DNA of 64,000 nucleotides from Candidatus Omnitrophota bacterium (GTDB lineage Bacteria; Omnitrophota; Gorgyraeia; Zapsychrales; Zapsychraceae), in the NCBI GenBank assembly GCA_021108075.1, contig JAIORP010000206.1, positions 831-64,830 of the forward strand. Reading direction: 5' to 3'. A program made the translations under genes and the position numbers. Shown piece by piece: positions 19,401 to 58,400 of the stretch. Below the pieces are notes generated by a model that worked only from the letters and a program-made list of their open reading frames with translations, was not told the DNA's origin and did no database searches. Numbering within the stretch: position 1 is the first letter of the stretch; every line of letters starts with the position of its first letter.

Positions 19401-22400
19401 CTCCCGCATGACTTTGGCGAAATCAATCAGGACAAAGAACGGTCTGTAGTGCATATAGAATGTGGCCGGCACCTTAAAGGTGTATGTCAATTGATCAGCA
19501 TCTGTTTGAATAGCAACATTTTCAAAACAAACCGTTTGCCTTACTGCTTGCTCATGCGCGGCATCCTTTGCTGTTGATTGAACGGTTGCTGATGATGGCT
19601 CGCCGGTAGCGATAGGTTTGAATTGTTTAATACGTTCGTCCGGATCATATTTATATAAGGCTTGATGCAAGAAAGAAATGATATTTTGAATTTCCTGATG
19701 AGATGATTCGGCAATGAAATGCGGAAGTTCACTGTCTGTCAAAATAAGTTTGAGAACATCAATGGTGAGTTCCATATCTTCTGTTGACCAGGCGCCTTGA
19801 TTGATCAAGGCAATGCGCAGGGCTGTTCCTTCAACGAAACGCTTCCTCCAAATGGAACCGAACTCTAATTTCTCTTGTGTCACAATATTGTAAATCTCTA
19901 AGACCATACCCATGTTATTCAAGTGCCCGGCAATATTTAATGTGAATAAATCATCGATGGTCTTCGAGAAAGTGTAAGGGATGTTGACCATCCTTTGAAC
20001 GCGGTTAAATGTCCGCGTTTGTTGCGCCAGGAAATCATCCATGCGGGCTTCATTAACATTGTCTGAGACATTAAATATGCTGACAGCGCCGATTTCATGG
20101 ATCAAGCTGGCAGCTATTTGAAGCGGTGTTAAATATTGTCGGTATTCAAGATAATCCGAATGGTTGGAAAGAACGATGTATTCTGTGCCTTCATGGGCGC
20201 AAACGGTTGCCAGAAAACCTTTGAGTGGTCCGGCTCGGACATGTCCGGCGTTGATCATCGCTTCTAAACGGTCAGCCATATTGTTTTTATTGATCGCTCT
20301 TAAGTAAGTCAATGCGAATTCTTTGACGATCTTAACATCAACGATGTCTTTAAGCGCATCAAAGGCAGACCAAACATAACGTTCAACTTCAGCGTCACGT
20401 TGTTGTTTGGTTGGCGCTGAGAGGTCCGGATGTTTGCGGGCAATGTCTACTCTGGTATTGTAATAATACGATAACCAGATCCAGTTCTTATATTGTTGTT
20501 CACGGGAGGCAACCTTTTTACCCGTCTTCCTTAACACGGATCCAAAAGGATTCAATGGGAATATCCAGGAAATGAAGACTTTCAACAGGCCATTAATATC
20601 ACTATCATAATCCCCGGTCACCCATCGACTTCTCGGTTGCTCGGCAGGTCCGGTTGAAAAATCAATAATGTAAATTTTCTTTTCTCTCGTTATAAATAGA
20701 TGTTCTACTTTAACATCACCATGAATAATTCCCAGGTCATGATTCAGGCGTCGATAAGCATCTCCTATTTTCCTGACGAGTTCTTCCTCATTCTCAATAA
20801 AGAATCGAACCCAAGAGCTATTCCCATGCAGTTCAGCCAAGGATATGCTGTCTTCTATTCCCTTCATAATGAGGACATCCGAAAGAATAAGACTTTCAGG
20901 CGCTATGCCTGCCCTCGATGCTCTTAGCGTCAATTGATATTCCAGCTCAGTCGCGTTTCCTGAAGGAGCTGTAAAGTTCTTAAATTTAAAATAAAGAGTC
21001 TTTTCACCACTATCCGTTTTCAGTGTTGCCCTGACAACCCAGCCTGAAAGCGTTGCTTCTTCTCTGACGATTTCCAGTGCTAATGCGGTTATCGATTGAA
21101 CGCCGAGGAAGTCTTTCAATAATGCTTTGTTGATAAAGATGGACCGTATCTTTTCTTTAACGTCATCATGCCAGGATATAGGGGAATCATTAATAGCCTG
21201 CCCGAGTAGAACGCTTTCGGCATCGACGGTTGTTTCTCCCGCCAACCATCGTTGCGTGCGCGCTTCATTCTCTTCATCTGTTAGATTGAACTCGCTGACC
21301 GCGCCGATTTCATGGATCACGCTGGCCGCGATTTGAAGCTCTGTTACGTATTCAGCGTAAGCCGTTGAAATAAGGATGTATTCCGTTCCGTCTTTCTCAT
21401 AGATAGTGGCCAGGAAGCCTGCCAGCGGTCCGGCGCGGACTTGACGCGCGGCTAACATGCCTCTTAACCTGACGGCCATCTCTTCTTCACCCGCAACCCT
21501 CAACGCCGTCTCTAACACAACTTCCATTGAGGCGATATCAACATATTGGTCGATGCTGATAAAGTCCGTATCCCAGTTCAACGCTTCAACAGCGGCATCA
21601 CGCTGTTCTTTGCCCGGTTCAGGAAGATCAGGGTGACGGCGGGCGAGATCTTTTCTGCTATCGTTAACATTGGAATCATCAGGCATCGTATCTTGTCCGG
21701 ATTGATCTTCTCTAATGTTTATTTTTACCCTGATGTCTTTTTCAGCGGACGATTTTAATATAAAGATAGACGTCAATTTCTCGCTAAATTTAATGATGGC
21801 GACAATAATTCTTGGACGCTCTTTAGGGTGAACAACGGGAACAACCTGTTCATGCTGCTTTCTGTCGCGCGCGAATTGCAACTCACTTTCAGGCGCGTAA
21901 AGCATCAGGATGGCATTCATTCCGTCATAGCGTCCTTTTTCTATTTCCCCAAGGCTCCATTGAACCGCGCCATTATGTTCGTGGAACCCTCTAGCTGTTA
22001 CCGGGCTGTATGTCGCGAGGTATGGAATTCTTTCACGTTTTGTTTGTTCGGCTTGAGTGAGGACCAATCCACGGGCCAATCCTCTAACCGGTTTGCCGCC
22101 AACGAGATAATAATCACGTCTTTCTTCAGATATTAACTTGACATTCGGCGCTCCAAGGGCGAAATTAAAGCGTGCGTTTGCCTTTTGATCGACGCTGCCT
22201 TCTAATGTAAAATTATTGGTTAACGCGTGAACGCTGGCAAAGAACCCGGCCGTACCAGTTTGACCGCCGGTAAGCTCTTGCGTTCTAATAATGTTAATAA
22301 TTTCCGGTGTTAAGTACTTCTCCACGCTCCAGATCAAGGCTCCCAGAAACACGCGTTTGGTTTCTTTATCGATAACCTGAGCAACGACGATGCCTTTTGC

Positions 22401-25400
22401 GTTATGTTGAATAGCACTTCTTAACTGATCAACCGTCACTGTCTCTTGCGGGGTTGTTATCCAGGCATCATTGTGAACGGCTGTTAATTCTTCAGCCTCT
22501 TGTGTGACGGCCCAACGGTATAGAACATACGCATCATCACGTTCATCAACCTTGAAGAAAATTAACTGATCGGCAGGGATAAACCATTTGTAACCAAAGT
22601 GTCTGCGGACAAAACGTCTTAAATTGGAAGGAATAACGTTACGCGGGATGCAAAGTTTTGGCATTGGCGTTCCGACCCTGAGATGTTCGACACGTCTCGC
22701 GTTGTATTGTTCAATGACCTGGTCCCACGTTCCTCTAATGATATAGCGACGAGACAGGAGATAACCGCCAATGCCGATGACAATGGCGCCGACGATCGCA
22801 CCGGCCATCGTCCAGACAAGGCTGCTGATTTCTATGACTGCGCCTGACTGCGCAATAGCGTTGACGTCTTGAGCCTGTGCAACATTCGTGATACCGAACA
22901 AGACCGCGCCTATGCCAAGCATTGCAAATAATACGGATACCAGTGTGAATCCACCTTGAGCATTCTCTGGACAGGATCCTGGTGTTTTAAAAGTTGTGTC
23001 TTCTTCGTCAAATCCCTTTCTGGATATGCTTAAAAATTTGAAGCCTTTGATTGTATCTTCAACCTCACCCTTGGCTGTGACTATTTGGCTGTCAAGCGAT
23101 GTATCGCGTGCAGCCCGTGTTTGGACGCTTGAGAGGAACTCTCTTTCGCGTTCGGCATTCGTCTCATCCGTTAGATTGAACTCGCTGACCGCGCCGATTT
23201 CATGGATCAAGCTGGCCGCGATTTGAAGCTCTGTTACGTATTCAGCGTAAGCCGTTGAGATAAGGATGTATTCCGTTCCGTCTTTCTCATAGACAGTGGC
23301 CAGGAAGCCTGCCAGCGGTCCGGCGCGGACTTGACGCGCGGCTAACATGCCTCTTAACCTGACGGCCATCTCTTCTTCACCCGCAACCCTCAACGCCGTC
23401 TCTAACACAACTTCCATTGAGGCGATATCAACATATTGGTCGATGCTGATAAAGTCCGTATCCCAGTTCAACGCTTCAACAGCGGCATCACGCTGTTCTT
23501 TGCCCGGTTCAGGAAGATCAGGGTGACGGCGGGCGAGATCATCTTTATCTATCAGCTTAAAGAAATTCAGAATGGAGGTTAACGATCGCGTTAAGAACAC
23601 AAATGGTTTTCCGCTCCTGGCCTCTTCTTCGGAGATATCACCGATCACAAACGGAATATTTTCTAATAACTGTGAAGCGATTGTTTGATATTGCGCGGCC
23701 ACTTCTCTTTCTTCCCTGCCGTTCATGGCTTGTTCTAATAATACGATTTTCATGTCAACGCCCATTTCAAAAATAATCTTGAGAAGGACTTCGTAGATGC
23801 CGGCTAAGCAGTCATAACTCATGCCGCCTGTAATTATTACTGTGTTCATGCCTTTCGCCAACAGGTGCTTCACTTCCTCGCGCAGCATGTTCTCTTCCGC
23901 TTCCATCGCCTGCTGCTTAACACGGATGATCAGGTCGGCCTCTTCAGCGGTATATCCCTGCGTCTCAAAAATCTCCGGCGTCATCGTAAGTTTCTTCCAG
24001 AAATACTTATTAAACTTTTTCTCATAGAATAGATATCCATATTTTTCCAGTTTTACCAGCAAGGCACCTGACAAGACGCCTGGTGCTGTTGGACCATAAC
24101 CATATGAAACGCCCAATTTAATTTGTCGGCATGGAATATCCCGTGATCTTAACAGTTCTAACAATTCTTCCTCGGCATTAAAAGACTCGAAGTCATGATC
24201 TTTAACCGTCAGGATCGCCACCTTGGGCCGGTCAGAGGAAGCGGCCGCATCTTCCCGGGCCGGTGTCGTTCCTGTCGAGCGGCGGCGGGCGATACTGTCT
24301 TCGAAACGGTCTAACATAAAGGAACGGATATCGGCTAATCTTTCAAGCACGGTGACTTCAGCCTGGCGGAATTTCATCAATGGATGGTCCTCAACATATT
24401 TTGTCCGGACATCAAACCGGTCACTTCCCCAAATAGCTTTTACTGGCAAGACAATATGGAGGTCAGCATTATTTTCAAAAATATAATAAACAATAACCTG
24501 ATATAACGACAGGAGACAATCATCGCAAACACCGCCGGTTAATATAATTGTCTTTATTCCGTCCTCGACGATCTGGTCAAGTATCGTTCTGACCTGTCGC
24601 GCTTCTTCTTCCAACGCGGCTGTTCTTATTCTTAAGACGAACTCAGCCTCTTCTTTTGTATAACCCCTGACAAGCAACCATTTCTCGGTTAAGTCAAACT
24701 TGCTCCAGTAGTAATGGTTCAACTTATTCTCGTAGCCTAACAGGTCGTCATTATCTAAACGTTCAGCTAATTCTTTCGGGATGGCATCAACGGATGTTTT
24801 ACCAAATCCGAATGAATCAGCAACCTCAATATGCTCATAAGAAACGCCTTCTTCTTTTAAGAGGTTAAATATCCTTGATTCAAAAACAATCGCTTTACGG
24901 TCATAATCGGTAACACTCAAAACGGCCACGTCTTTTTCACCAAATTGCGTCGCTGTGTCAGGAGAGCAGAACCAGCCGGATTCCTGCAATTTCTCCGCTT
25001 GATTAAGATAAGACGCTGTCACCATCGAAGATGTCGCGATGTATAAGGCGCGGATCAATTCCTGGGCCGGGTTAGAACCGCTGAATTCACCAAGATCGCG
25101 GCTGTTGATAGTCAGGCGAACGTCACCCTGCGTTGGAATGTCATAAGTTGCCTTGTTATGATCCCACGGGATATAACTCAAGTTCGGCGGATATCTTAAG
25201 ACATCGGCAGGATAGACGACCGTCGGAACATTTTCTTCTTTAATGCCTGAAATGTACGCGTCGGATAAGAAATAAGCGACTTGCCGGGCGACAGAAGCGA
25301 TATTGAGATCAAGCGGGCATGTCAGATCCACACGTCCGACATAAACTTGCTGGCTTAACTCAAAAATCAGCTTCAATCCTTTTTGCAGGAATGTGTCATC

Positions 25401-28400: not shown

Positions 28401-31400
28401 ATGACCCCGTACAATTTCTATGCGGCGTTTAAGTTCCTGAACGTGTTCATAGAAGCGTGGATAGTCGGCTAAGAATTTACGCAATTTCTCATCGCGTTCA
28501 ATCTCTTCTTGCCATTGTGTTTTGTCATGCGTCATGGCCTCAAAGAGATAGCCATCGACATCAATCATGCCTGGAAGGTCACCAAAAATCTCTTCCGCAA
28601 TATCGAGGAACAGATACGAGAAGGCCGGATTACCGATATGGACCAACGACTTAACCTCTTGCCCTTTATCTTCAATACCAAAGCGGCGTAATAACTCCGA
28701 TCGGCTGCGCCGGCGGACTTGCATTCTCAAGTCTCCGGTCGCATCGTCGCGGAACAACCATTCTTTGTTTTCGGCAAGGTCATCCGTAACCGTGACAAGG
28801 CTTCCGAAACGGACAGCATCTGTTTCGCTTAAGTCCATGTCTAGTTCCGATAAAAGATTAGACGCAATTTGAACTTCGTCACCCCACTTCCAGGCTAAAC
28901 CGCGGAATCCCATGCGTCTTAAATGGTAAGCGACCAGATGCCACACATACGGTGAAGCGGTTGCGCCGGATAACCAGCGTCGATCTTTACCTGTTCGCAT
29001 TAAGATCTTCAAGAACGGTTTGATTCCAAAGACGCGTTGGGTTAACGGACTCATACGGGTTCCGGAACCTGGCAACATCGCGCCAACCGACACGCTGTTA
29101 CGGTCAAAGTCACCGTAACGTTGTTTCCAGTCGCGGTAGGCATCCAATAATCCGAGGAATTGTCCGCGTCGTCCGACTTCCGGATAAGCCATGATGCGAA
29201 CGCGTTCGTCTGCGCGCAGTAAACTTTTTGTCTTGATCGCGAAGTCTTCTTCAACACTGACTTCGTCCCCGCCGCTGGTGATCGCGATCAGCTCATGAAC
29301 ACCTAGTGATTCCTTAACAATCATGCGTAATTCTTTTATGTTGGCGATCAGATTTCTCAAGGCCTTGCGTGTTGTTCCTCTAGGCCCTTGACCATCTGAG
29401 GCCTTTGCTTCTTCGTCTTCAGGTAACGCGATCGGTCTGCGGCTAACCTTGGCCATTTCTATTGCGATCACGCTGTCGGTAATTGGTAATACGCCTGATT
29501 GAACCAGATAAGATTGAAGTTTAGCGGTTCTGCTGGCGATCATACCGATCACGTTCAATAGACGGTAAAGGGCATAAACGAATAAATTGATAAAACCACG
29601 TTTATCTGACGCCATCTCTGGCTTGTACAGCAGGATATAACCCATCATTTCGTAGAAGGTCCACGTATTTCCGAATGAGGTGACCGCGTTATGTTTAACC
29701 GGCATAACGTAGACACCGAATGGCGAAAAGATCACGGTATGGGCGATGTCTTGTTCTTGTAAGGCTTTGATATACGAGGAAACTTGTTCCGCTAAGGCTT
29801 CAAGGTCATCGCGGGTTGAAAAATAATATCCTTGAGCCGGCCAATCGCGGAGCATTGAGATACGAACACTACCGCGTGTTTCTATCAACTCTTTATGTGC
29901 CCGTTCTAATGGTGATTTATCTTCTGGCAAATACATCCCGTGCAAGTGCAAGTCATGAATGGAAGCACCGGCAGCCAAACTGTTAAATGTGAGTCTGAAC
30001 CGGCCCGTTGTGTTTTGGGCCACCCAGCGAATGGCTCGTATGATATCTTGCGGCCGCAATACTTGATCCACAACATTTTCAAATCCGTCCATAAGAAGAA
30101 GGAAGTGACGTAAGGCATACGGATATTTTTGTTCCAGCAGATCAACCTTTTCGCTATCAATCTCACCGCGGTAGAAAAATTCTTTTTCATCCTGAATAAC
30201 AGCCGGATAGGTTGGGTCACCTTCTCTTCTCGGTTGCGTGACGCTTTCATAGGACCGTGCCGGCATTGGCCGTTTGGTTCTCCATGGAGTCAAGACGCGT
30301 TTAAATCGTCCCGCTCTTGACATCGACGGCACGCGTGTCGGCGGCAGAAGTTCTTCAATCATTTTCTCCAAGGTCCCCATGCCAACGGTTACGATCTTTC
30401 TTAACGCGACCTTAATACCGTATTCATCCCGGCTGACTTCAACCTTAACGTTCTCTAATACATTCAGGCCTTTACTTGTTTCTTCGACTAATCCATCAAG
30501 TTCTTGAGCCTTGAATGTTTCGTCACTATTATTTGTAATATAAACTTTTCCGCGAACTTCCGCCCGGCTCAGGTCGATTGAACCTTTAGATGTCACATCG
30601 GAATATAGTTTCGATGATGATTCTGAGGCGGCCCGTGTGGTCACGCGGGAGGCATCCGTTTCCGGAGCGAAGTTTCCGGACGGTGTTTTTACATCGACAC
30701 GGCTTTCTTTTTCATCATTCATTATCGGCCGTGTCTTTTGTGACATTTTCAGCCCGGCACTGCTGATCTTAGCCCTTACCGCCTTAAAAATGTTCCGCAA
30801 GGCTTGCATTCCGGAAGCCTGCACGGCAAAGATAGACTTAATCTTCGCGTCCATTTCAAAGTAGGTTGCGACTGTGCGTCTGTCCGCTTCAGCATGAGAA
30901 CCGGTTGTCAGCTCGCTGACTTCGTGGAAGGCGATGACTTCATAAGCGCCTTTGCGTTCTTGTTCTGTCCGGAAGGTTCGATTAAATCTCTGATAAACTT
31001 TCTTGGATGAGAAGTAGATCACAAGGGTCTGACGGCCTTCAATGGTTTCAAGTCTGGCCCAGATAAATCCTTCCGGCGGGGCATGCGCTACAGGCGTGTT
31101 GAAGTATTTGACTTGAACGGGGATGTTTGTTCCACGATGATTAATATCGTTATATCGCGTTACAAATTCAACGCGCAGGGCATTATCCGCTAATGCATTC
31201 AACCCAGACTCAAGCGTTTTTCCGATATTACCCATGTAACCGACAGCCTCAGGAGAAGCAATCTCCGTTCGGCCGTCAACCGTGTAAGCCTTGACGATCT
31301 CATAGAATTCTTTCAACGCTTCAATGTCTCCGGTCTGACTGGCTGTCGTGGTGATACTTACAAATCGGTCCCAATCTTCCGAGTTATTTAGGGCAATGAC

Positions 31401-34400
31401 GTCTAAATATGTTTCGCGGATAAATTCTTTTGTGTCCCGATCATACAACAATACGCCCATCGTCGCGACCTGGATATACTTATCCAAACCAGTCGCCGCC
31501 TGCAACCGGTCCGGTGTCGTGAGAATGACCTCCGCATCAGCAGGCGTAATATAACTTTCGTGATCCTCAACATTGTCCACTAACTCCCGCAAGAATTTAT
31601 TGTTGTCTATTTCTTCCTGTGTCCGTCTCGCGTGTGGGTGGGTTAAACCGATTAATGTTCCGTCATCCACTTTGTTGAGCTTGACGATGCGCGCAAACTC
31701 GCCATTGAAGATTGATGCTGAATGATCTGTTCCAACCTGGCCAATTTCCAACGGCACATTGTAACGGACAACAACATCTAAATGATTAGCCGTGTTTTCT
31801 TGTTGTAAAATTCTGTCGACCAATGGAATGCTGTCATCCTGGAACTTCACGCGTTCGCTTTCCGGTAAATACTCGATCAAGTCTTTTTGCAGGATCAGCT
31901 GGGATTCCGGAATAAAATTGTAGGTTAAATTGTTCATGCCCGCATCCGCTTCTGAAATCTTGGATATGACTTGAACGCCGACTTCACGCGTGTCTTCTCT
32001 GGCTGCCAGGTAAACATTTGTTCGGTGATACGCGCTATGAACCATATCATCCAATAAAACCTTACGGACACGGTCGTTCCAGCTTTTACCGGCAGGATCG
32101 ACTTGACCAATACCGGCTGATTCTCTAATTCCAAGAACTTTTGGAACTGCGACTTTATTAAAATGGGTTGGGTTATCGCCGTACAGAATACCTAAAGCCT
32201 CTACCATCAGCGATGTGCCTTGAATAAAATCGGTGAAACGTTGTCTGGCTTCGGTCACAGGATAAGTATCACTGTTTTCACGTTCAACTTTGAGACTTTC
32301 GTTTAATTGCTGAATGGCCCTGAGATGGGCTTCTCCATTCTTGAAGATGGATTTGATTCTAGCGTCCCGTTTTGGAAAAGCTTGTCGCGTGCGTTGATCA
32401 GCTTCTTCGTGACGGCCTGTATTCATCTCGATGGTTTCATGAAATACGATTGCTTCTAAAGCTGATTTTTGTTTTTCTTCTGTCTTAAACGTTCTTAAGA
32501 ATTTCTTGTACAGGGCTTTTGATGAGAAATAAATCGTTACTGCGTGTTGGTTACCGTCTGATTCAAATTCCGCCCAAATAAAGCCTTCCGGCGGAGCTTT
32601 ATCAAAACTTGTCTTGAAGTATTTAACTCGAACCGGTCTATTCGCATCAACGAAAAATGAAATGATGTTGGAATATTCTTTTACGAGTTTAACGCTGCCT
32701 GGATCTTTTGCTGTAGATTTAAGTTTGCTTTCAAGGTCCTGTGGAATATTACCCATGTAACCGACAGCCTCAGGAGAAGCAATCTCCGTTCGGCCGTCAA
32801 CCGTGTAAGCCTTGACGATCTCATAGAATTCTTTCAACGCTTCAATGTCTCCGGTCTGACTGGCTGTCGTGGTGATACTTACAAATCGGTCCCAATCTTC
32901 CGAGTTATTTAGGGCAATGACGTCTAAATATGTTTCGCGGATAAATTCTTTTGTGTCCCGATCATACAACAATACGCCCATCGTCGCGACCTGGATATAC
33001 TTATCCAAACCAGTCGCCGCCTGCAACCGGTCCGGTGTCGTGAGAATGACCTCCGCATCAGCAGGCGTAATATAACTTTCGTGATCCTCAACATTGTCCA
33101 CTAACTCCCGCAAGAATTTATTGTTGTCTATTTCTTCCTGTGTCCGTCTCGCGTGTGGGTGGGTTAAACCGATTAATGTTCCGTCATCCACTTTGTTGAG
33201 CTTGACGATGCGCGCAAACTCGCCATTGAAGATTGATGCTGAATGATCTGTTCCAACCTGGCCAATTTCCAACGGCACATTGTAACGGACAACAACATCT
33301 AAATGATTAGCCGTGTTTTCTTGTTGTAAAATTCTGTCGACCAATGGAATGCTGTCATCCTGGAACTTCACGCGTTCGCTTTCCGGTAAATACTCGATCA
33401 AGTCTTTTTGCAGGATCAGCTGGGATTCCGGAATAAAATTGTAGGTTAAATTGTTCATGCCCGCATCCGCTTCTGAAATCTTGGATATGACTTGAACGCC
33501 GACTTCACGCGTGTCTTCTCTGGCTGCCAGGTAAACATTTGTTCGGTGATACGCGCTATGAACCATATCATCCAATAAAACCTTACGGACACGGTCGTTC
33601 CAGCTTTTACCGGCAGGATCGACTTGACCAATACCGGCTGATTCTCTAATTCCAAGAACTTTTGGAACTGCGACTTTATTAAAATGGGTTGGGTTATCGC
33701 CGTACAGAATACCTAAAGCCTCTACCATCAGCGATGTGCCTTGAATAAAATCGGTGAAACGTTGTCTGGCTTCGGTCACAGGATAAGTATCACTGTTTTC
33801 ACGTTCAACTTTGAGACTTTCGTTTAATTGCTGAATGGCCCTGAGATGGGCTTCTCCATTCTTGAAGATGGATTTGATTCTAGCGTCCCGTTTTGGAAAA
33901 GCTTGTCGCGTGCGTTGATCAGCTTCTTCGTGACGGCCTGTATTCATTTCAATAATTTCATGGAAGGCAATAACTTCATAGGCATCTTTTTGCTTTTGAT
34001 CTGTTCTAAATGTTTTTAAAAACTTCTTGTACAGGGCTTTTGATGAAAAATAAATAACGAATGGTTTTTGGTCATTAATGGATTCAATCCGTGCCCAAAT
34101 GAAACCTTCCGGTGGAGCTCGGCTTAATGTTTTTGTGAAATATTTAACTCTAATCGGAGAGTCGATTAAGAATGGAATGGTCTCCGTAATTTCTCTAACT
34201 TGTTTGACATTGCGTGCATCATTCGCATACTCGCGTATCTCTTCGACTGTCGATTGGCCAATATTACCCATATATCCCACCTTAATCGTATCATCAGATC
34301 TTCTGTCTCTTGTTGTGTCTTTCGCCTTCTTCACCGCAGCTTTGACGGAAGACAATCTTTTTTCCGGCAATGATATGGACATTTCAATTTTTGTGCCTTG

Positions 34401-37400
34401 CTCGGCATCCGGGGTCGTTTCTGTTTCCGCTTTGACGCGGGCCATTTCTTCGTCTAACAATTCATCAACCGGTTTTTGTCGAACAGCTGTTGGCGCCAAT
34501 TCACCGTTTCTCATCACAAACGCGGCTAACCCTAAACGGCGCATGGTGTAGGCCATATTGAACTGAATGTCTTCGACCAATTCTTTCGTATTGGCCCGCA
34601 TGGTTACATACGCGCGTTGATCTGTGAATAATGTGAATAAATGTCCGGCAACTTCATCCAGGGATTTAATTTGATAGCTTAATTCATCTACCGGCCGAAT
34701 AAGCTCTTTGCTGATTGCGCGTGGAACGACCTTTCCTTGCCTTTCAATCTCGTCAACAACGTTAACCAGATACCCTGTTTCGCCATGCTGGATTTGCCGC
34801 CCTATTCCACCAACGTTGTAAGCAATCACCGGAACGCCCTTATCGATCGATTCAGAAACTTTAATTTCGTAACCTTCAGCTAATGATAATTGTAAGGCCA
34901 CACTTGAGCGTCTTAAAATCGCGTTCAAGACGTGGTCGTTATGTGGTAAGCGGGCAACCTTCACGTCTTGAGCGAATTCAGATGGATATAAACTTTGAAT
35001 ACGGTCTAAAGTATCGATATACAGTTTCATCCCGTCGGTATCATCAACAGCGCCATGACCGGCTAAGATGAGCTGCGGCAGTATTGCGGCCGTTATATCG
35101 TTTTCCTTAATATATGATTTCATCATGACCCAGAAGCGGTAATAAGCTTCAATCACGCCAGGAATGTTCTTGGATGGATCCATACGCGCGACTTGAATGA
35201 TGCTTGGACGATTAAGATCTAAGGCGGTCATCAATTCCGGATTGATGCTGATTTGTCTTTGAGTGAACCATTCTCGCATCTCATCCTGGTGTTCTGCTAT
35301 ATAGCGGGCGATCACGCCTGACTCTGTCGCTGTTCCGGCTTCATGGGCCAGGAAGAAATTGAAGCGGGCTAATGCGTCAGCGGTTGTTTCCGTTGAATGC
35401 TCCGTGTTCAAGTCATCGACACGGTCTGTTGACGGGTTCATAATGACTGTCGGTTTATCGGCGATAACATTTTCAGGAACAGATTCTTCGATTGGATCTG
35501 TTGGCTGAATGATAACGACGTGCGCGTATTTCTTAATGGTTTGCCACAAGAAATCCCAGTTAGTTCGCGCCACGGTGCCTTCGCTCATATCCGCCTCGAA
35601 ATGGATGTGTGAACGATAGATCCACCTGACCGTCTTGCCGTATTTGTCCGCCATAGCCTGAATGTATGGCATCATTCCGGAGGGCTGATAGTCATGGTTG
35701 AAAATTACGATTTGATCTTTCGCTTTAGCGATAGCCGATTCTAATCTGGCAGCGTTGACCCTCCAATTTTCTCTTAAAAGCGCTTTGTCTTCCTCTGTTA
35801 ACGCTCGCACCAACCGGCCCTGGAATGTGTTGTGGAAACTGTTCTTTGTGATGTTAAAGACTTTTTCATTACCTGTCATCACAAACCAGTGGGCATCTAA
35901 TCCTAAGGCAAAACGAATGAGTCTTTGGAAGGCATGCAGCATTAAAGCCACTCCTCCTCCTTGAGCGGTTGAATTAATATCAAAAATCGTCACATCTTTT
36001 AATTCTCTTGCCCAGGAGAGGATGTTCTTCCAAATGCTCGCTGATGTTGTTTGCTCATAGCGGGCTTTGGACATCAACGGTGTGACAATGACTTCTTCTG
36101 TTTCTTTGTGTGTTCTGACTTTATAAACATCAAATGGCCCTTCTGTTTTGTAATGGCTAGCCACCCAGCGGGCTGTAACTTGAGATTGTCGGGCATTGGC
36201 GGTCATGTTACCGGCCATCATGGCGAGGACGATGTCTTGCTCTGGCAGCGTTTCAAGATCAGCCGCTTGCGCTCTCAACCAGAACAAATCAAATCCTGTA
36301 TCATATCTTAAGAACGTTCCTAACTCTGTTGCCACTTCCTCATTCAATCCAATAATCGCAGTGCTTGTGATCCGTACGTTTTGTCTCTGCGCTAAGATCC
36401 TTAACGCCTTTGCAATCGCTTGCGTATATGCTGTGATGTCCTCTTGCGCTTTTGGCGCGGCAATGGTGCTTGCCCGGCCGTCTGTTAAGGCAACGTAAAT
36501 ACCGTCTTTGACAACATTGATACCCGCGTGTGTTGTTGGGCGGACCGTGTCTGTTGTGGCCTGCAACGCCGGGCGGATGGACCAAATTCCGCCGATCAAT
36601 ATGATGGCGACAACCGTTATGACAACACCTGCGACAATCGTAACACTGATCCAGGGAGCGGCTGTTGCGGCTGTAACCATTGTCGCTGTCTGCGCTGTGC
36701 CGGCAGCCTTCACGGTCGACGCGGTCAAGGTCAACATCACCAAAAGAATGCTGAATAATCCGCGTTTTGCACCTTTGCGTCCTTTTTGTCTGTCCGAAGA
36801 TGTCTTGATTGTCGCGCTGTCTCTTCTTCCGCCCTTATCTCCGTTATCATCGTCTTGATCGTTTTTGATTTGTGTCTGATCAATAACTTCGACTTTAAGT
36901 CCTTGATATTCTTGTCCGAATAATGTTCTAAAGAAATCCGCGTGGTAAGCGCCGACAATAAACCGGACTGATTTACCTGATTGAACAGCGCGCGCAACGA
37001 TTTGTTTAATATTTTCTTGCGCCATTTGCATGCGCCATTCAATAATAATATCTTTAACAATATAGTGAACAGCCGCTTCAGATGTTGGATGATCAATAAA
37101 TGATCGAATCATCCCGACGCGTGGTTGTTGGCCTTCTGGAAGTTCTTCTGTCATGCGGGTCAACTCAATGGCCAGGGCCCTTAAAACCTCCGTCCAATTG
37201 GACATGAAGTTTGTCCAGGTTAATAACGTCCAGGGCGACTGATTAACAACATCGACTAATTTTCTTTCTGAACGGCGAGATATATATGTATTAAATTGAC
37301 GGTACAGTTGACGAGTAGAGGCTGTTAATTTCTGGTCATTAATAGCGTTCCAAGCCGACCTGAATGTCGTGTTCGTGCGGGCGTAAATCACTAATTGTTT

Positions 37401-40400
37401 GATGACGTCGTTTAAGACTCGCGTTTCTTGATGTGCCAGGAGTCCGTAGCGGCTTAAGACATAGCTTAAGACAACCGCTAACTCATCTTCAATGCCGTAG
37501 ACCTGACCTTTAGACTGGTAACCGAAAAGCAGCTCAACGATGGCTTCAACGGATTGCTGATTATGAACGACGTTCTCCATACCCACGACAATGTCGCCTT
37601 CATTCGCGCGTTGAACATATTGTTTCAAGAATGGCTGATAGCTTTCAGATGAATGGTCCACTGCGAAAACTTTGATGTCCGGTTGTTGTGGAATAAGGTC
37701 TGGATGAGCGTATTGAAGAACAGACGCTAATAACTCAGCAGAAATGGTTGCTGTTGCCTGAACGTTTATGTCTGTTAAGCCTAATCGTTGTTGAATCAGC
37801 TTCACATATAATTTTTCATAATTAGCCGCCATATTCTCTAATGTGTACAGGCTTAACACGCGTTGCCGGCCTGCGCGGCCCATCAATGCTCTTGTTGGCT
37901 CATCCCTGGCCAGTCTGACAATTGCTTTTGCTAACTCATCAGCTGATTTTGGTGCAACGAGTACGCCGGCTTCTGTTCCTAATGTTTCAGGGATGCCGCC
38001 GACATGGCTGGCAACGATTGCTTTTTCAGCTACCATGGCTTCCAGCATACTTAACCCTTGACCTTCAGAAATGGATGGCAATGTAAAAATGTCCATCATC
38101 GAAACAGCTTCAGCGACATATTTATGTGGAATGACGCCTGGCAGGATAAAAATCCCTTCCAGGCTCATTGCTTTGATTTCCTGTTCCAGACTTTCACGTT
38201 CTTCACCTTCTCCGATGAGAACAAAACGGGCGTTTGGCATTTGTTCATAAATTTGCTTGGCCGCGCGGACGAAATATTTCTGGCCTTTAACAGCATGTAA
38301 ACGAGCCAATGAACCGATAACAAACTTACCGTCAAATTCTTTTGCTAACGCGCGAAGCGTCGGATGCGTCACGTGTGTAATCGGTGTTTCGAATAGTTTA
38401 ACATTAATACCGTTTGGAATAATTTCGATCTTACGTTTGGCAATGCCTGTTTTGATGTGTGCGGCTTTTTCTTCCGCACTTAAAGCGACTAAGGCATCAT
38501 CGACCAATCGAATTCCCCATGTGGTTGAATGATAGCCAACCAAGCCGCGAATAACGCTGGACCATTTATTGATATCCGGCATCGAGTGATAGGTTGTGAC
38601 CACAACGGGAATACCGACTAAGTATTTAGCAATTATTTTTTTCACCAGGACTTTCAATCCACCGGTCAAATGAACGTGCAGAACATCCGGATCAATTTGT
38701 TTATAAAGTTTGTATTCGCTATATGTGCTTAACGCAGCTCTTTTTAGTTTATTCAGGAGCGATAAAATTTTTGCCGTCTTAGCCGCATATTTTGAATAGA
38801 ATTTACGTGGCAGCTTATACATCGGTTTAATAACAAATTTAACTCCGTGTTCTTTAGCGGTTCGAATGTCGTTATCATATTTTTCTTCCGTGTTTCTTGA
38901 TACGGTATAACAAGAATAAATGTTATTGTTTGTATGTGTCATCAGGTCCAAGGCCATCTTTTCAGCCCCACCACGGCTAAAGCTTCCGATGAGATGCAGC
39001 ACGCGAACGCGTCGGCTTTGTGAAGCAAGCTCCGCCTTCTTCTTCTTTAAGTGTGTGCGGACCGCCAACCATTGTCTGAAGGCTAAGATCGATAAAATGC
39101 CAAGTCCGGCAAGGACAAAGTATGGGGCGATCGCAATAACCGTTGATATTGTTAACCATGGTGTTGCCGCTGCCGTGACCATTGTTGTTTGCGCTGTTCC
39201 GGCCGCTTTGACAATGGCTGGGATGACAATCATTAACGCCGCCAGCGATACGATCTTTGTTGTCCGGCTCAAGCGGTCTGATTTTTTGATAACAGTATCC
39301 GTCTTATCCATTTCAGCCCGGATGTCTCTGAAGATGCGAACGAGAAAGACGACCAGGGCCGCTAACGCAATCACAATGCCGGCGGTTACAGCGATTGTTA
39401 TCCAGGGAGCCGCTGTTGCGGTTGTAACCATCACGGCTGTCTGTGCTGTCTCAGCTTCCTGTGTAATGGATGCGATCACGCCCAGGGCAATTGTCGGAAT
39501 ATAAATCAATTTCATGGTCAACAGGTATATCTTGATGAACACTTTTTTCACGCCATTCTTTTTAACAACACCTGTTGCTCCGCGATCATCGCCTTTGCCA
39601 AAGGCTCTTGTTATTACGGCTTGATACGGAGCCAGTGTGATGACGATATCTTTTTGGTTTAATCTTTCGCCGGTTAATTCCATGGATTTAACAAAATCTT
39701 GAACGCTTAATCTCTGGTCGGCTTGATAACCGATTTGATAGAGTTGTTTTGCTTTGAGGCGCACAACCTTTTCGTCGGCTGTTAAATTCACTAACCCTAA
39801 GATCGTTTGTTCCTGATCAACAGATGTCCGCGCGATAGCAGCAACGCCCTCAGCGACCTTCAACATTGTTTGTTTGGCCTGCGGAGCTAAAGCTTTAAGC
39901 AGCTTGCGTGAATGCAACATATCGATCAGATCCGGTGTCGGACCCTTAACTCTCATAATCTTATTCACCGCGTCCAATAGTGTTTCCGGGGCGCGGTGAA
40001 CGCTGCGCAATGTGGATGTTCTTTCGTATTCAGCCATATTATTAGAGGAAGCGAGGAAGTCTTTCACATCAAATCCAGGAACACCTTTAATCAGCATTAA
40101 GAGGGCGTAGATAGCGATATATTTTTCTTTCACGGCATTCTCTTCTTCTTGTATCGACATGGCCGTCATTATATCCCAAATCGTGGTATTTAGTTCATAG
40201 GCCTTTTGTGTCTTGTAAAGCTTGCTGCCGAATAAGGCTTCTGTGACTCTTGAGGCGGATTTACGGAGCGTCGAGACATTGTTGATGGAACGGTTACTGA
40301 TCAATGTGACACCGTATTTTGCCTTTGAATATTCTTGCCACAATTGAACCAATTGATCTTGCTTGCCTCCAAGCACGTCTTCACCTGAGCGAAGGGCGAT

Positions 40401-43400
40401 TCCATCATGCTGTCTTAAAAGGTTCAACATTGTGACGTCTGCGGCTCCGTTCAATTGATCCATAAACCTGGTTAATTCTTTTGCGTCGCCTTTGTAAAAG
40501 GAATACAGCAGCACGTTCGCAAGGGCGAAGTTATACAGCATTTGACCTTCACCATTATTTGTTCCACTGTATGATAAGGCGTCTTTATACGGCGCGTTGA
40601 TTTCCGGTAAGATCACGACCTCAGGAGCGACTTCATCAAGGATGGCTCTGAATAATTTAACCATCAGGTGGGATTTGTCATGATGAACGCTGGCGGTTCC
40701 TAATTCTTTCCACAGGTAAGGGATCGCATCGACTCTTAATATCTTTGTGCCATGGCTTAATAAGACGAACAGGACCTCGATCATCGCTAAGAGGACTTGT
40801 GGATTTCTCCAGTTGATGTCCACTTGTTGAGCGCTGAAGGTTGTCCAAACAAGCACGGTCGTTCCGTCAGCTAACCGGTATGGTGTTAATAACGGATGTG
40901 ATCGTGGACGAACAACTTCGTCGAAATCCTGTTTATTGACAACTTGACCATATTGATCCATGTATTCATTTTCAAATTCATAAACGTTCTGGCTGACTTC
41001 TTGTCCGTCCTGATCAAAGTAGTGGATTACTTCCTGGCCGTCTTCAACGCTTGCCTGTTGATAATATTTAGGAACATAGTAGATGAAATAATCTTTGTAT
41101 TCTTCAACATTATTTAAGAACGCGGTGAACCATGGATGGTCTGAAGCGATATGACCAACGATGAAATCTAACATCAATTTCATATCATGTTCGCGGACGA
41201 TCTTTTCAACCATTGCCCAGTCACCTTGTTTCGCGTCAACCCGGGTGTGATCTTTTGTTCCAAATCCTTCGTCGACTGAGTATGGGAACAAGCGTGGCAA
41301 AATGTGCAAAATTGTGAATGGCTGGCCAACTTTGCCTAAGGCATGCAAGAAGAAGTTAAGCGTTTCTAATGGATACTGATCTGTTGTATTCGTGAATGTG
41401 TCCGGATAGCTGATTAAAGTGACATCGTTTTCTGTTAAGGCAACATTGTCCGTTTGCCATTTCTTAATGGCTGAAGAGTATTGAGCGGTTAAGGCTTCCA
41501 ATTGAATCACAATATCAGCTGTTTGCTCCGCCCCATAAATGCGTCGGAGAATATGGCTGGTTCTATTTCGTCCTGAAAGACGGCCAGTCTTTTTAAATGT
41601 TTTCATTTCTGCTCGAACGAACCATGCGGAGAAGATAACTGCCGCGGCGCTGATAAGCGTGACCGCTCCAACTACAGCCCAAGGAGCAGTTGCCACCATG
41701 ACAGCTGTCGAAGCTGTTCCGGCAAAGTCAACGCTGGTTGGGATAAGCATAAGGATACTGACAGCGACAATAATTTTGATGAGCCGCGGAAGGATACGGC
41801 GTGTCTGTGGCGTTTCAGCGACCATATCTTGTTTACCATCGGTCATGGCCTTGTTGTCATCTGTCTCATCTATCTCAGCCTGCATGTGGCTTAAGACAAC
41901 CCAGAGGCTGACACCCGCGACAATAACGCCGATGATCATCGCGGCAACAATAACAATGCTGAACCATTGTACTGCCGCCGTTGTTGTCACAACGCTTAAT
42001 GTTTGATTCATTCCGGCACCAAAACTTTTAACCGGCAGCATCATCAAGGCTCCGATAATAATTGATGTTATCGTTGTGACCATTGTCTTGCGGCCGGAAC
42101 GAGCGGCGATTGCTGTCTGACGATCAATTTCTTGAACATCGCCGAATCTGGCCACGCTTAATTTATCATCCTGGACATTGTTAATGTGTGCCCTGTATTC
42201 AGATGGTGAGTAAGCTTTAATCTCCCGGGAGGTATCAGCGGCCGCTTCAACCAAAACAGCCAGGCGGACATCTTTATCTTTTAATGAAGCGGCAACAGCG
42301 TCTGTTCTGTCATTGATATCCCGTTGGACTTCCGCGTGGTCAATATCTTTGACGTCATCGTAATCATCACTATCTAAGTAATAATCATATTCAATGCTAG
42401 CCACAACGTTATCAGACACGGTTAATTGATCGAAGTCTGGATGGTTATCATAAGAGAATAAGTTGAATGGTGTTTCCAATAAACCAGCCTTGATCAATCG
42501 CTCAACAGGGGCCACCAACCGGTCGTGGGTTGCGACACGGATGATCGGCGCGTTCAAGCTGAAGGAATAACCGTCAAGGACTTGAGCAACCGCAATGATT
42601 TGCTCTGAGGTGTACTCAACTGTTCCCGTTGATAATCTTCGTAAGCTTAATTGAACAAGGATAGCTTCTCTTTCGCTGTGTTCAATCCTGTTCAATATTA
42701 AGGTCTGATGGACTTTTTCGTGTTCAAGCACAAAACTCCAAATCTGTTCAATAAGATCCATGGAGATGTCGGCTTTTTTCAGCGTCGGGACCACAACATC
42801 TTCGTAGGAAATGGTCACAATCGTGTCTGTGTCAATGTCATATGAAGCCACTGTCGCCGGTGGAGCTGTTCTGTTGAAGTTGATCACATCTTCCAGTGCT
42901 CTTATGGCTTGAGCATATTCTCTTAATATTCGGGCTGCTTCTGCCTGCCCGGCTTCTTCTAATGCCTTAACGATATTAAATAACTCTTGTGACATCATAT
43001 CTCTGCGGGTCTTGTTCGCTGAATGCTCAGCTGATGCTGCCGGGCCATAATCAACGGTCTTGCCGCTGATTGGTTTTGGTGTGCCGCTTAATCTCCAACC
43101 CGTGTTGTTATCGTTATAAATGATTTCTGCTTCAGTCACATATTCTTGCGCATCCATATCAATAACGCGCATCAAACCGTCAATAATGCCGGCATAGTTT
43201 CCGTCGCTTAACCGGATCATTAAATTGCCCTCATCGTCTTCCATGTCTGGAGTTGGATACTCAATCATGCCACCGTCAACATCAATTTGATATTCTGTAC
43301 CCATTGTGTCGGTTACAATAATTGTTCCGTCAATAAAGGAGACGTCCGTTCTGGTTTCGACATGTTGTCCATCAACAGCTAAGTGCTCGTCCTCTTCCAT

Positions 43401-55400: not shown

Positions 55401-58400
55401 TGTTGTCTTGTCGTGATCCAGATTAAATGCTTTCTGGACGTCTTCTTGATAGGCTTTGCTCAATTCTTTGAATAAGAACTCAATAACATTCGCCCGGCTA
55501 TATTGATTCAATGCGAGTAAAGCCTCCTTTTGGTATTCTGGAAGCCCGTCCATAAACACGACAACAGCTTGTTCTTTTAACCGGCTGACTTCTTCTTCTT
55601 TCGCGCTAACGCGTGCCTTCAAGTGTTGAACGTCTAATTGTAACCATGCCTTGAGTTGCGCGCCCTTTGTTTCGCCTTCAACTTCAACAGATCTTAATTC
55701 TCGCTCCCGCTTTGTCAATAATGTTTTAATCGCCTGCATTTCTTTGTCCCGCTTATACGCCAAAAGAAGGATGCTTTCATCAACAACATCCGCATATACC
55801 TGCGTCCATGTCTTGATAATACCGGCTTTAATTTTCTCTTCCCGTTCCTTTAATACTTGACCAATGAGATCATAAAGATTTAATAAGTGTCGGTCACGGA
55901 CGACTTTAAACATAAAGATAGCCAGGTTATCCTTGGCGACTGCCGGATCAGGATTCTTGTTTCCTAAAAGCTTCAATTTCATTTGCTTCAGGATCTCAGC
56001 ACTCTTATCCTGTTCTGTTTTAAAAGAATCTTTTCTTTCAACGATATCCTTTCTAAGATCTTCAAACATGGTTTTAATGGAATTAATTTTCACTAAGAAG
56101 CGCGCCAGGCGCATTCCTTTAAGATCAAAGCTCCTATCTATTAAACGTTCTGTTGTCCCTGTTCTTGAGTAGGAATGATCCATCGCGTCACGCAATTCAG
56201 ATGGCAATGTCTCGCGCATTTTTTCCGCACTCGTAATGCCGCGATCTATAATTTCTTGAACGGCTCCGGTCAACATGTCCTCAATAATTGCGCGAATATT
56301 TCCTTCACGGACAGACTTGATTTTCTCGAACAAAAATCGTCTTAAGGCTGCTTCATTTTTAAATCGGTACAGGTAACGGATCGATCTGTTTATATCTCTT
56401 AAGCGTGGGTCGGCTAATTGATTCATAAGATCTTGAGCGCCTTCATCCGCGATGGCTTGCATTTTAGTTTCAACATCTTCTAATGCTTTTTCCTCAGGAA
56501 GAGTTTGATAATAAGCGAACAATCGATTCGCTTCCGGTGTGGCTTCTTCTAATAAATCCGCCATGCGTCGGGCGATGTCTTCATCTTTCACGTCATCTTT
56601 TTCCTTTAAGATATCCCGGTATTTTTCCAACGCGTTATATTGGCCGCTTAAATCATCAATGATATCCATGCCATCAGCCATCTTGGCATAAACATTCAAG
56701 TCTCCGCTCACTGTCTTCAGGACAAGGTATTCGGTTAATCGTTTAATCGCTTCATGCTCATCATTATCGGCGATAAATAAAAGCGCGGATTTCATGCCTT
56801 CCGGAATATTCGACCAAACGGCATTAACTAACTTATTGATCTTACGCTGACCGAGGATCGCGACAACTTTATCTGTCGTTATTGGCGCTCTGTCATCCTT
56901 GTCGGTATCATTGTTAACAGCGTTATTGTCATGGCTATTATCATTATCATCTTCGTCCTTGTTTTTGTTCAATACCCTGCGAGCTTGGACCCTTAATGTC
57001 ACGATCGCTTTTTCACTGACAATCGGCTTGTCGAACGAATTATTTTGTGAACTGTATCGGACAATTGTTTCATAAATGTTATCGGATAAGACATCTTCGC
57101 GTTGAGCTTTATAAATATTATGGATCTGCATATAAAGCTCACGGTAAAGAATCCGGTCGATACGGCTGAAGATATATCGATACAGGTCACTGCGTTGGAT
57201 AAATCCTTCATCCATCTCCACGAAGGCGGATTGAACGACACCATTGACATCAATGACATTGTCTTTAACCATCTGAGCGAATGTCAGAGATACTTCATCA
57301 GCCTCCATTCCAAGGACTTCATGAATTTCATCGGCGGTCAGCACAACTTGTGAGACATTCATGATTCTTAAGGCTTGAAGCTGATCAACCGATAACAACT
57401 GCACAATCTCAGACATCCATGGCGTTAATGCCAGATGCAGGGCTGTCTTCGCATTCTTCAGGTTGATATTTATTCTGTCGATTTCAGCGTTAACTTCAAA
57501 TTCTTGTTCTTCATAGATGCGGAGATCTTCTTTCTCTTTTAATAAATTCACGCGTTGTTTTTGCAGGTTGATAACGAGTTGTAAGATCTTGCGTTCCTGG
57601 TCTGATAATAAGACATCCTCCACCTCTTGTTGAGCTGTTAGAATCGCCAATTTTTCTTTTACAGCATCCGGCAAGCTTGCTTCGTAGGCAGCAATCTTAG
57701 CTTCAAGATCCAATAAGGCCTGTTCGAGATCAAGGACTTTATCCTTTGACGCTTGAATATCTGTCAATTGTTCTTTTAACCTGTTGTGATCCTCTAAAAT
57801 CCTTAAATACTCCTGCCATTCGGTTGAAACATCTGTGCGCATATCGTCTATATGACGTTTCACATTAGCCAGAACTTCTTTCTCTTTCTCAGCATCGTGA
57901 CGCTTAATATCAACAGAAATCTTTTGATCCAAGAGGCGATCGATCACATATTTCATCCAGTCCTTCTCCGCTGTTTCTTCAAGGGCTTTAAGATCATCGT
58001 TTAATAACTTAACTTCCTCTTTTTCATCTTTCGTTTTCGCTTTTAGTGCTTTTTGTGAGTGTTGCGTCTTCAACCAAATCATTTCTTCTCTTTCCGCCCG
58101 TTTGGCCATCGGCGCGTGTGTAGCAACATATTCCTTGGCATCTCTATAGTTCCTTAATAATTCTTCAGCCTCACCGAATGAGATGGAAACTGTTCCTTCG
58201 TGATCCATGACTTTAACGAGGCCGCCATCGCTTAATCGGATGTATTGACCGACACGGCCGCGGGTGATATTGACCTCGCTGTCGGTTTTGGTTTCCTCTC
58301 CTTCGTGATCCATGACTTTAACGAGGCCGCGGGTGATATTGACCTCGCTGCCAGCTTTGGTTTCCTCCGTATGCTTGATGCCTGTGATGTATCCACCGAA

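Follow-up and report, generated by a model that had tools for sequence, protein, structure and literature searches.

Related predicted membrane hairpins with a conserved Ala/Thr-rich loop punctuate the sugar-enzyme modules of a giant Omnitrophota protein

Bacterial genes that run to tens of thousands of codons came to light only recently and are little understood; the two questions at stake are how their products are organised at the membrane and whether they are cut. In the Omnitrophota, numerous transmembrane (TM) regions are found in every full-length giant gene, and the cleavage points are given as unknown (West-Roberts et al. 2023, bioRxiv 10.1101/2023.11.21.568195). Giant proteins of the 'multi-enzyme metabolic cluster' class carry sugar-metabolism and kinase clusters in a predicted membrane-anchored architecture with cytoplasmic domains, and TM helices make up a constant share of about 2% of their residues (Nielsen & Lui 2026, bioRxiv 10.64898/2026.06.07.730766). 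The word 'hairpin' is absent from the text of both papers, and linker, cleavage and polyprotein are also absent from that of Nielsen & Lui 2026; the helices were counted, but hairpin units, a cassette family, a conserved outer loop and module-borne hairpins were not described. The present analysis concerns five related, predicted membrane-hairpin cassettes that separate sugar enzymes in a giant protein of a Candidatus Omnitrophota bacterium, encoded in a stretch of 64,000 nucleotides (positions 831 to 64,830 of contig JAIORP010000206.1, assembly GCA_021108075.1), hereafter the window.

The encoded chain resembles the described giant proteins of the Omnitrophota in being a single open reading frame (ORF) far longer than 10,000 amino acids with sugar-metabolism (GT1, starch-synthase-like), kinase, methyltransferase and HATPase-type domains, none of them dominant, and in having many scattered TM helices, here 43 hydrophobic segments. 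With at least 21,332 codons, against the 10,000 amino acids that delimit the giant-protein class, and with scattered TM segments among diverse enzyme domains (APH, GH13 phosphorylase, GT4, TreT-like, Kdo/RIO kinase), it belongs to that class by size, domain content and TM content. Punctuation of a giant bacterial multi-enzyme protein by TM helices is already described; new is a homologous cassette, used as a double or single hairpin, with a selected loop.

Hairpin arrangements are also known from much smaller proteins and from viruses. M13 procoat is a free-standing protein of 73 amino acids with an acidic loop that is cut by leader peptidase, and helical-hairpin insertion depends on YidC/Sec in small bacterial membrane proteins. 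The cassette shares with this type a signal-like helix 1, a loop of about 20 residues that would be translocated, a helix 2 followed by basic residues and two ends predicted to be cytoplasmic, but it is internal to a giant chain and its loop is almost uncharged and Ala/Thr-rich. The polyproteins of flaviviruses and hepaciviruses are cut at internal signal sequences by signal peptidase, in the eukaryotic endoplasmic reticulum and with modules on alternate sides. Here too hydrophobic pairs punctuate a multi-enzyme chain, and helix 1 of the cassette has signal-peptide proportions and small-x-small strings, whereas the modules flanking the cassettes all appear cytoplasmic and, of the two, only the viral chains are known to be cut. 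The bilobed hydrophobic domain of chlamydial Inc proteins, two TM helices with a short loop and one per protein, likewise presents soluble domains on one side of a membrane, but lacks the conserved Ala/Thr-P-W loop and has no sequence relationship to the cassette.

Five cassettes with an ordered loop

Five homologous cassettes of 85-95 amino acids lie between positions 36,537 and 42,110 of the window, on the minus strand and in the same frame (Table 1). The original prediction, made from the letters of the window, had reported a near-identical short segment recurring at least five times between soluble domains. Its four quoted peptides were found as the loops of cassette 5 (AAGTAQTATMVTAATAAPW), cassette 4 (AAGTAQTTMVTAAATPW), cassette 3 (ETAQTAVMVTTATAAPW) and cassette 2 (GTASTAVMVATAPW), and a degenerate fifth copy with Q-W replacing P-W (GAGMNQTLSVVTTTAAVQW) is present in cassette 1. 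The wording 'near-identical' was too strong, as the mean pairwise identity among the five paralogues is 55% for the loop; it is 26-27% for the helices and 10-25% for the flanks.

The build of the copies is uniform. An N-terminal flank with 3-6 Lys and Arg residues precedes the core of helix 1, which spans 15-16 hydrophobic residues in four cassettes and 22 in one. Four of these cores are shorter than helix 2, and a Pro stands close to the end in four of them. The loop of 17-22 residues is rich in Ala and Thr, holds 0-1 basic and 0-2 acidic residues and ends in P-W (Q-W in the degenerate copy), with the consensus G-T-A-Q-T-A-x-M-V-T-x-A-T-A-A-P-W. The second helix of 21-26 residues begins directly after the loop Trp and is followed by a mostly basic C-terminal flank with 1-6 Lys and Arg. 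That strongly hydrophobic helices flank the segment was confirmed on the Kyte-Doolittle (KD) scale with a 19-residue window, where every copy has two segments above the threshold of 1.6 and all ten helices peak at 1.8-3.0. With Hessa's biological scale, taken as the sum of 19 residues with the position term left out, helix 2 scores -3.5 to +0.2 and helix 1 +1.6 to +4.0, the median of the whole protein being 20.

A profile of the five cassettes (alignment A1) recovers exactly five copies in the frame of 21,332 amino acids, at 84-96 bits, and gives outside them only noise-level partial matches on second helices, in the hydrophobic pairs at 18.9 and 9.9 kb. The motif is absent from the hydrophobic pairs at 6.7, 9.9, 11.3, 18.9, 22.8, 48.7 and 49.8 kb. 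A database search for the motif had been proposed, and four of these pairs (18.9, 22.8, 48.7 and 49.8 kb) had been left aside; the pairs lack it, and one relative outside the window, described below, has it.

The loop is an ordered motif and not a low-complexity coincidence. The regular expression of the motif gave no match in 1000 shuffles of the protein, and the sum-of-pairs score of the loops was 439, as compared with 122 ± 21 (maximum 205) after shuffling of residues within the loops (z = 15); these two results exclude the coincidence that had been named as a possible refutation. Shuffled in the same way, the first helices gave z = 0.7 and the second helices z = 1.6, and thus the loop keeps its residue order whereas the helices keep composition only. 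The stronger conservation of the loop, as opposed to the helices, that had been suggested holds among the paralogues, and it holds again in the relative.

Judged by sequence comparison, the five cassettes are paralogous copies of one helical-hairpin element, and the tandem pairs were duplicated as a unit (amino acids 7332-7494 and 8186-8349, 29% identity, E = 5e-11). At identical residues in helices and flanks, the numbers of shared codons are those expected from codon usage (15 observed and 15.1 expected, 21 and 16.4, 10 and 9.9), so the duplications are old. Identical loop residues have the same codon in 43 of 82 cases against 25.8 expected, a moderate excess, and two loops are 80% identical over 61 nucleotides; nucleotide differences between copies are mostly at third codon positions. 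Some gene conversion between the loops, or a codon preference confined to them, may account for the codon excess.

A single relative and the modules of the chain

The lineage is scarcely represented in public data. A HMMER profile search of 1.84 billion representative proteins gave a single match, P0026, a protein of 4,260 amino acids matched in four stretches (E = 1.6e-8) and encoded on a metagenome contig of 30.7 kb in ENA (ERZ21869602 ctg79529l, here L002). The contig is collinear with amino acids ~6995-14025 of the window at 36-87% identity, rearranged and with many frame changes. The order of its modules (L002 1-26692) differs, a homologue of window amino acids 20925-21331 standing directly upstream of the homologue of amino acid 6995. 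Between 16.6 and 22 kb the reading frame shifts about 10 times and the gene is called in a dozen pieces, owing either to faulty assembly or to decay of the giant gene.

The orthologue of cassette 5 lies at amino acids 1071-1146 of P0026 (L002 ~7120-7347; 50.6 bits). Its loop, AKAAGTAKTTTMVTASAMPW, keeps 15 of 19 residues (79%), as against 5 of 15 in helix 1 (33%) and 18 of 29 in helix 2 (62%). Among the degenerate codons of the conserved loop residues 7 of 13 are changed, equal to the proportion of 0.54 in the adjacent domain on the TreT side, which is 72% identical. With the residues kept and synonymous change at background, it is the peptide that is conserved, no less strongly than the catalytic domain, and by this codon comparison the loop is under purifying selection as a peptide. 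The counterpart of cassette 2 keeps LIP..V.A...T.V...PW and otherwise differs.

The order along the chain is a double hairpin (A), a sugar phosphorylase, a second double hairpin (B), a GT4 glycosyltransferase with an unannotated domain of ~320 amino acids (X), a single hairpin and a TreT-like module. That the recurring segments separate soluble catalytic domains was upheld, the intervening domains being real enzyme domains by Pfam, by homologues and by the structure 7xdq. The best database matches of the phosphorylase are stand-alone sugar phosphorylases of ~600 amino acids at 28-32% identity, and in the PDB it matches the glucosylglycerol phosphorylase 7xdq (2.4e-27), with RVDAIPY, LPEIN and QHDGIA aligned to the catalytic Asp, Glu and Asp motifs (RxDA, PE, HDG). 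By these matches the module is a complete enzyme with its catalytic motifs intact. The TreT-like module carries a second Glycos_transf_1 stretch by Pfam and is 69% identical to P0026. Domain X, which ends in an Asp/Gly/Lys/Arg-rich linker (NDQDDDNGDKGGRRD...), has no Pfam match at E<0.01 and no sequence relative in the PDB at E<0.39.

The block formed by double hairpin B, GT4 and X (amino acids ~8135-9060) is missing as a unit in the relative, where nothing separates the phosphorylase from the counterpart of cassette 5, after which comes the TreT-like module. Deletion by recombination between loop repeats was considered as the origin of this difference and rejected, since helix 1 of the relative matches that of cassette 5 and not that of cassette 3; the difference is thus a gain or loss of a whole module. 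The relative also carries an insertion of 3.5 kb between window amino acids 9863 and 9892, which includes two hairpins of another type (..AQAAGAENALMLAGNEIDW.., ..ARAAGVEDVAQLAGNEIDW..). The absence of the block and the insertion with its own hairpins indicate that hairpins travel with the enzyme modules in evolution as their N-terminal anchors, here double, double and single. At least some of the many predicted TM helices of the giant protein are thus homologous hairpin units tied to modules and gained or lost with them, and the cassette can serve as a boundary marker for dividing the giant protein into modules.

Further searches for homologues were made with the cassettes and with the neighbouring enzymes. 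A word-indexed protein search with a two-cassette segment gave no match, but with the phosphorylase as query the same kind of search missed P0026, which is in the collection and ~50% identical over more than 1,000 residues, so that its negatives are weak for this lineage. The scan of 185,579 species genomes showed no relative and only a distant GT4 in a Calditrichaceae metagenome-assembled genome; nothing was found in a metagenome contig scan with the TreT alignment, and two viral contig scans gave no match. The sole match of the back-translated AGTA[QK]TxxMVT in JGI metagenomes (L003) was rejected as chance, being a Thr/Gly-rich beta-helix-like repeat protein without P-W and without an adjoining TM helix. 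When the cassettes were compared with NCBIfam and Pfam at E<=10, neither a family model nor a sorting-signal model matched, and the sub-threshold matches were confined to other small membrane proteins that form hairpins or anchors (holins, AmaP, the succinate dehydrogenase anchor and the N-terminus of cytochrome oxidase subunit II, CtaC). Stand-alone homologues of the TreT-like module are proteins of 1,200 amino acids, 41-44% identical, in which, by eye, the N-terminus is hydrophobic and resembles a signal peptide, with an unrelated domain behind it; among the TreT-like homologues inspected (P0027 on contig L004, and P0028-P0030) none has the cassette, and P0027 carries a different hydrophobic pair.

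Predicted topology and its alternatives

The cassettes are probably helical-hairpin membrane anchors with both ends in the cytoplasm (N-in/C-in), inserted co-translationally. Lys and Arg number 3-6 in the N-terminal flank, 0-1 in the loop and 1-6 in the C-terminal flank, which is the positive-inside signature of such a hairpin, and the hydrophobic segments, the short loop and the positive flanks of a two-TM N-in/C-in anchor are all present. Phosphorylases, GT4 and TreT-like enzymes use phosphate, sugar phosphates or nucleotide sugars. The three enzyme types should therefore be cytoplasmic, and cytoplasmic enzymes on both flanks fit a hairpin that brings the chain back to the same side. The proposed cassette of TM1, a loop ending in P-W and TM2, reused to anchor successive enzymes on one side of the membrane, is thereby supported computationally by homology, by two hydrophobicity scales, by the charge pattern and by enzymes of the cytoplasmic type.

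During synthesis of the giant chain, helix 1 would act as an internal start-transfer signal and the short, nearly charge-free loop would flip across the membrane, for which at this length YidC/SecYEG alone should suffice. Helix 2 would stop transfer and send the chain back to the cytoplasm, with Pro-Trp capping helix 2 and placing it at the membrane interface. The sugar phosphorylase, the GT4 with X and the TreT-like module would each be held at the inner face of the membrane, and the cassette thus yields a testable topology with three sugar enzymes on the cytoplasmic face. For the loop itself, our guess is an outer-face epitope that serves recognition or packing. It is a defined candidate peptide for cleavage, partner binding or modification; if it were only a structural turn, the finding would be a modest refinement of existing knowledge.

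Several observations weigh against this reading. Helix 1, being short and of marginal Hessa hydrophobicity, might not span the membrane alone. AlphaFold2, run on a single cassette with an alignment of five sequences, predicted one continuous long helix at low confidence (predicted local distance difference test, pLDDT, 63); for double hairpin B it predicted four helices, again at low confidence (pLDDT 63, predicted template modelling score 0.35), with breaks that fall within both loops, at VMVTTATA and at A-T before P-W. The ordered conservation of 17 loop residues exceeds the need of a simple turn, and since these residues are under purifying selection, anchoring alone leaves the motif unexplained. 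In the relative, an Ala/Thr loop is entirely missing from the counterpart of cassette 1, so the motif is not needed by every hairpin, nor for anchoring as such. Comparative support is also thin, the cassette being known in just one further sequence of the databases searched.

The conserved loop could be accounted for if the cassette served processing, helix 1 being an internal Sec signal peptide and the outer face being the place of cleavage, either by signal peptidase I at a small-x-small site immediately behind helix 1 or by another membrane protease recognising the loop. Separate enzymes would be freed, with helix 2 as the anchor of each and a short N-terminal Ala/Thr tail left outside. Such processing is compatible with the hairpin topology, but is unlikely. 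Helix 1 does have the build of a signal peptide, with its K/R n-region (3-6 K/R) and a short h-region, a core of ~15 residues broken by a Pro ~6-9 residues before small residues. By eye, four of the five copies show small-x-small candidates (IPAIVKA/AG, TASTVKA/AG, GVIA/S and SFG/AG, with VKA/A, AAG/T, VIA/S and SFG/A as candidate cuts, the slash marking the putative site), and A-x-A-like strings also follow helix 1 in unrelated hairpins of the gene and its relative (NVAQAQ, kept in the relative, VFAAT, LYAAT, VAQAAG, ARAAG). Processing is suspected in the giant-gene literature as well, the cleavage points being given there as unknown (West-Roberts et al. 2023, bioRxiv 10.1101/2023.11.21.568195). 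Against this, chance alone should produce such strings in segments so rich in Ala, an acceptable -3/-1 pair is missing from cassette 2 (SVDFAG), the conserved stretch lies downstream of the putative site, which is atypical for signal-peptidase substrates, and Pfam scans showed no peptidase domain in the 21,332 amino acids of the window. It is doubtful, then, that the cassettes are the cut sites of a bacterial giant polyprotein, a chain of more than 21,000 amino acids processed on the outer face with the AAG-TAQTA...PW loop as recognition site and its enzymes held by helix 2; if true, this would be a flavivirus-like polyprotein strategy in a bacterium.

The remaining explanations are far less probable. 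An unselected loop, left over from Ala/Thr low complexity or from recent DNA duplication or gene conversion, would fit the simple composition of the loops, and the same-codon excess with the 80% identical loop pair could point to recent exchange. It is largely refuted and very improbable, as within-loop shuffles reached at most 205 against the 439 observed, copies differ largely at third codon positions while the codons of the flanking helices are randomised, and between organisms 15 of 19 residues were kept with 7 of 13 degenerate codons changed at the rate of the enzyme domain. The layout of a Thr/Ala stretch, a short signature with P-W, an N-out/C-in hydrophobic helix and a K/R cluster resembles that of PEP-CTERM, PGF-CTERM and GlyGly-CTERM, and the cassette might accordingly be read as an internal sorting signal, a substrate of a sortase, exosortase, rhombosortase or rhomboid. 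This is hardly credible: the sorting-signal models of NCBIfam and Pfam stayed silent even at E<=10, such signals are C-terminal whereas each of the five copies is internal and followed by thousands of residues, the upstream 'cargo' would be helix 1 alone, and the window encodes no sorting enzyme. Equally hard to credit is a single span in which only helix 2 crosses, helix 1 staying in the cytoplasm or in the membrane plane and the chain switching sides at each cassette. The short helix 1 with its marginal Hessa sums (+1.6 to +4.0) would allow this, and the tandem pairs would still restore the chain to the same side, but the single cassette 5 would put either GT4 with X or the TreT-like module outside the cell, where nucleotide-sugar and phosphate substrates are out of reach, and the K/R-rich N-terminal flank with a charge-poor loop fits a translocated loop.

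The giant reading frame and its other features

Counting of stops per frame gave none in minus frame 2 over the 64,000 bases and 990-1696 in the other five frames, and the whole window is therefore part of a single gene that counts no fewer than 21,332 codons and runs past both ends of the window. A non-coding window was considered and rejected; few ORFs had been listed for it only because ORFs open at both ends were left out of the listing. Coverage by Pfam is sparse, about 10 short stretches being accounted for, with weak matches to HATPase_c, PrmA-like and Glyco_transf_5 (starch-synthase-like) besides those in Table 1. The 43 hydrophobic segments, non-overlapping in a 19-residue Kyte-Doolittle scan, occur about once per 500 amino acids, many of them in pairs.

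Table 1. Position of the cassettes, their parts, the enzyme modules and other domains in the window. Amino acid i of the frame (1-based) corresponds to window positions 64001-3i down to 63999-3i. Bits are from hmmsearch; KD, Kyte-Doolittle peaks of helices 1 and 2.
Feature	Amino acids	Window position	Strand	Evidence	Parts
Giant ORF segment		1..64000	minus	stop counts, translation, scattered Pfam domains	
Cassette 1, first hairpin of double hairpin A	7297-7384	41847..42110	minus	95.5 bits; KD 1.89, 2.75	TM1 42030-42074; degenerate loop KSFGAGMNQTLSVVTTTAAVQW 41964-42029; TM2 41892-41963
Cassette 2, second hairpin of double hairpin A	7393-7476	41571..41822	minus	83.8 bits; KD 2.21, 2.14	TM1 41730-41774; loop DFAGTASTAVMVATAPW 41679-41729; TM2 41616-41678
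Sugar phosphorylase module, GH13 sucrose/glucosylglycerol-phosphorylase-like	~7471-8135	39594..41588	minus	Pfam Alpha-amylase 1e-16	
Cassette 3, first hairpin of double hairpin B	8143-8235	39294..39572	minus	96.2 bits; KD 1.88, 2.98	TM1 39465-39530; loop TQEAETAQTAVMVTTATAAPW 39402-39464; TM2 39339-39401
Cassette 4, second hairpin of double hairpin B	8236-8322	39033..39293	minus	95.1 bits; KD 2.23, 2.38	TM1 39210-39254; loop KAAGTAQTTMVTAAATPW 39156-39209; TM2 39078-39155
GT4/GT1 glycosyltransferase module	~8331-8740	37779..39008	minus	Pfam Glycos_transf_1 9.5e-45, Glyco_transf_4 8.8e-11	
Unannotated soluble domain X, ~320 amino acids	~8741-9060	36819..37778	minus	between GT4 and cassette 5	
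Cassette 5, single hairpin	9068-9154	36537..36797	minus	91.4 bits; KD 1.81, 3.0	TM1 36711-36758; loop KAAGTAQTATMVTAATAAPW 36651-36710; TM2 36582-36650
TreT-like (trehalose synthase/phosphorylase-type) glycosyltransferase module with conserved N-terminal extension	~9151-9870	34389..36548	minus	Pfam TreT_GT1 9.7e-30	
APH-type kinase	~4071-4275		minus	Pfam	
GH13 alpha-amylase-family domain	7573-7833		minus	Pfam	
GT4/GT1 glycosyltransferase domain	8343-8727		minus	Pfam	
TreT-like trehalose-synthase-type glycosyltransferase	9341 onward		minus	Pfam	
Kdo/RIO-type kinase	~14350-14463		minus	Pfam	

Seven further hydrophobic pairs, at 6.5-6.9, 9.8-10.2, 11.2-11.5, 18.8-19.1, 22.7-23.0, 48.5-48.8 and 49.6-50.0 kb, are unrelated in sequence to the cassette. 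Several share its build of K/R, short core, A-x-A-like string (NVAQAQ, VFAAT, LYAAT), loop of 15-25 amino acids, aromatic residue, long helix and K/R, and the NVAQAQ pair is conserved in the relative. Two dense hydrophobic clusters, at amino acids 544-800 (~61600-62400) and 1476-1870 (~58400-59600), are without a Pfam family match and resemble polytopic integral-membrane domains, not hairpins.

On the plus strand, ORFs 38920-39504 and 41539-42006, two of the three longest complete ORFs of the window, run antisense to the double hairpins, and ORF 36508-36858 (116 amino acids) runs antisense to cassette 5. All three mirror the loop motif (e.g. QGAAVAAVTIVAVCAVPAA), and as antisense mirrors of the cassettes they were rejected as genes; most likely they arise because the antisense of Ala, Thr, Val and Ile codons is poor in stops.

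The frame also holds repeats of other kinds. Amino acids 10001-10500 and 10508-11005 form a tandem duplication with 89% identity (window ~30981-33995), more diverged copies of which begin at amino acids 9907, 10412 and 10919. Three repeats of ~140 amino acids with ~50% identity lie at amino acids 13485-13628, 14113-14247 and 14514-14662 (window ~20010-23543), and a further pair, at amino acids 19520-19653 and 20724-20857, is 48% identical (window ~1425-5438).

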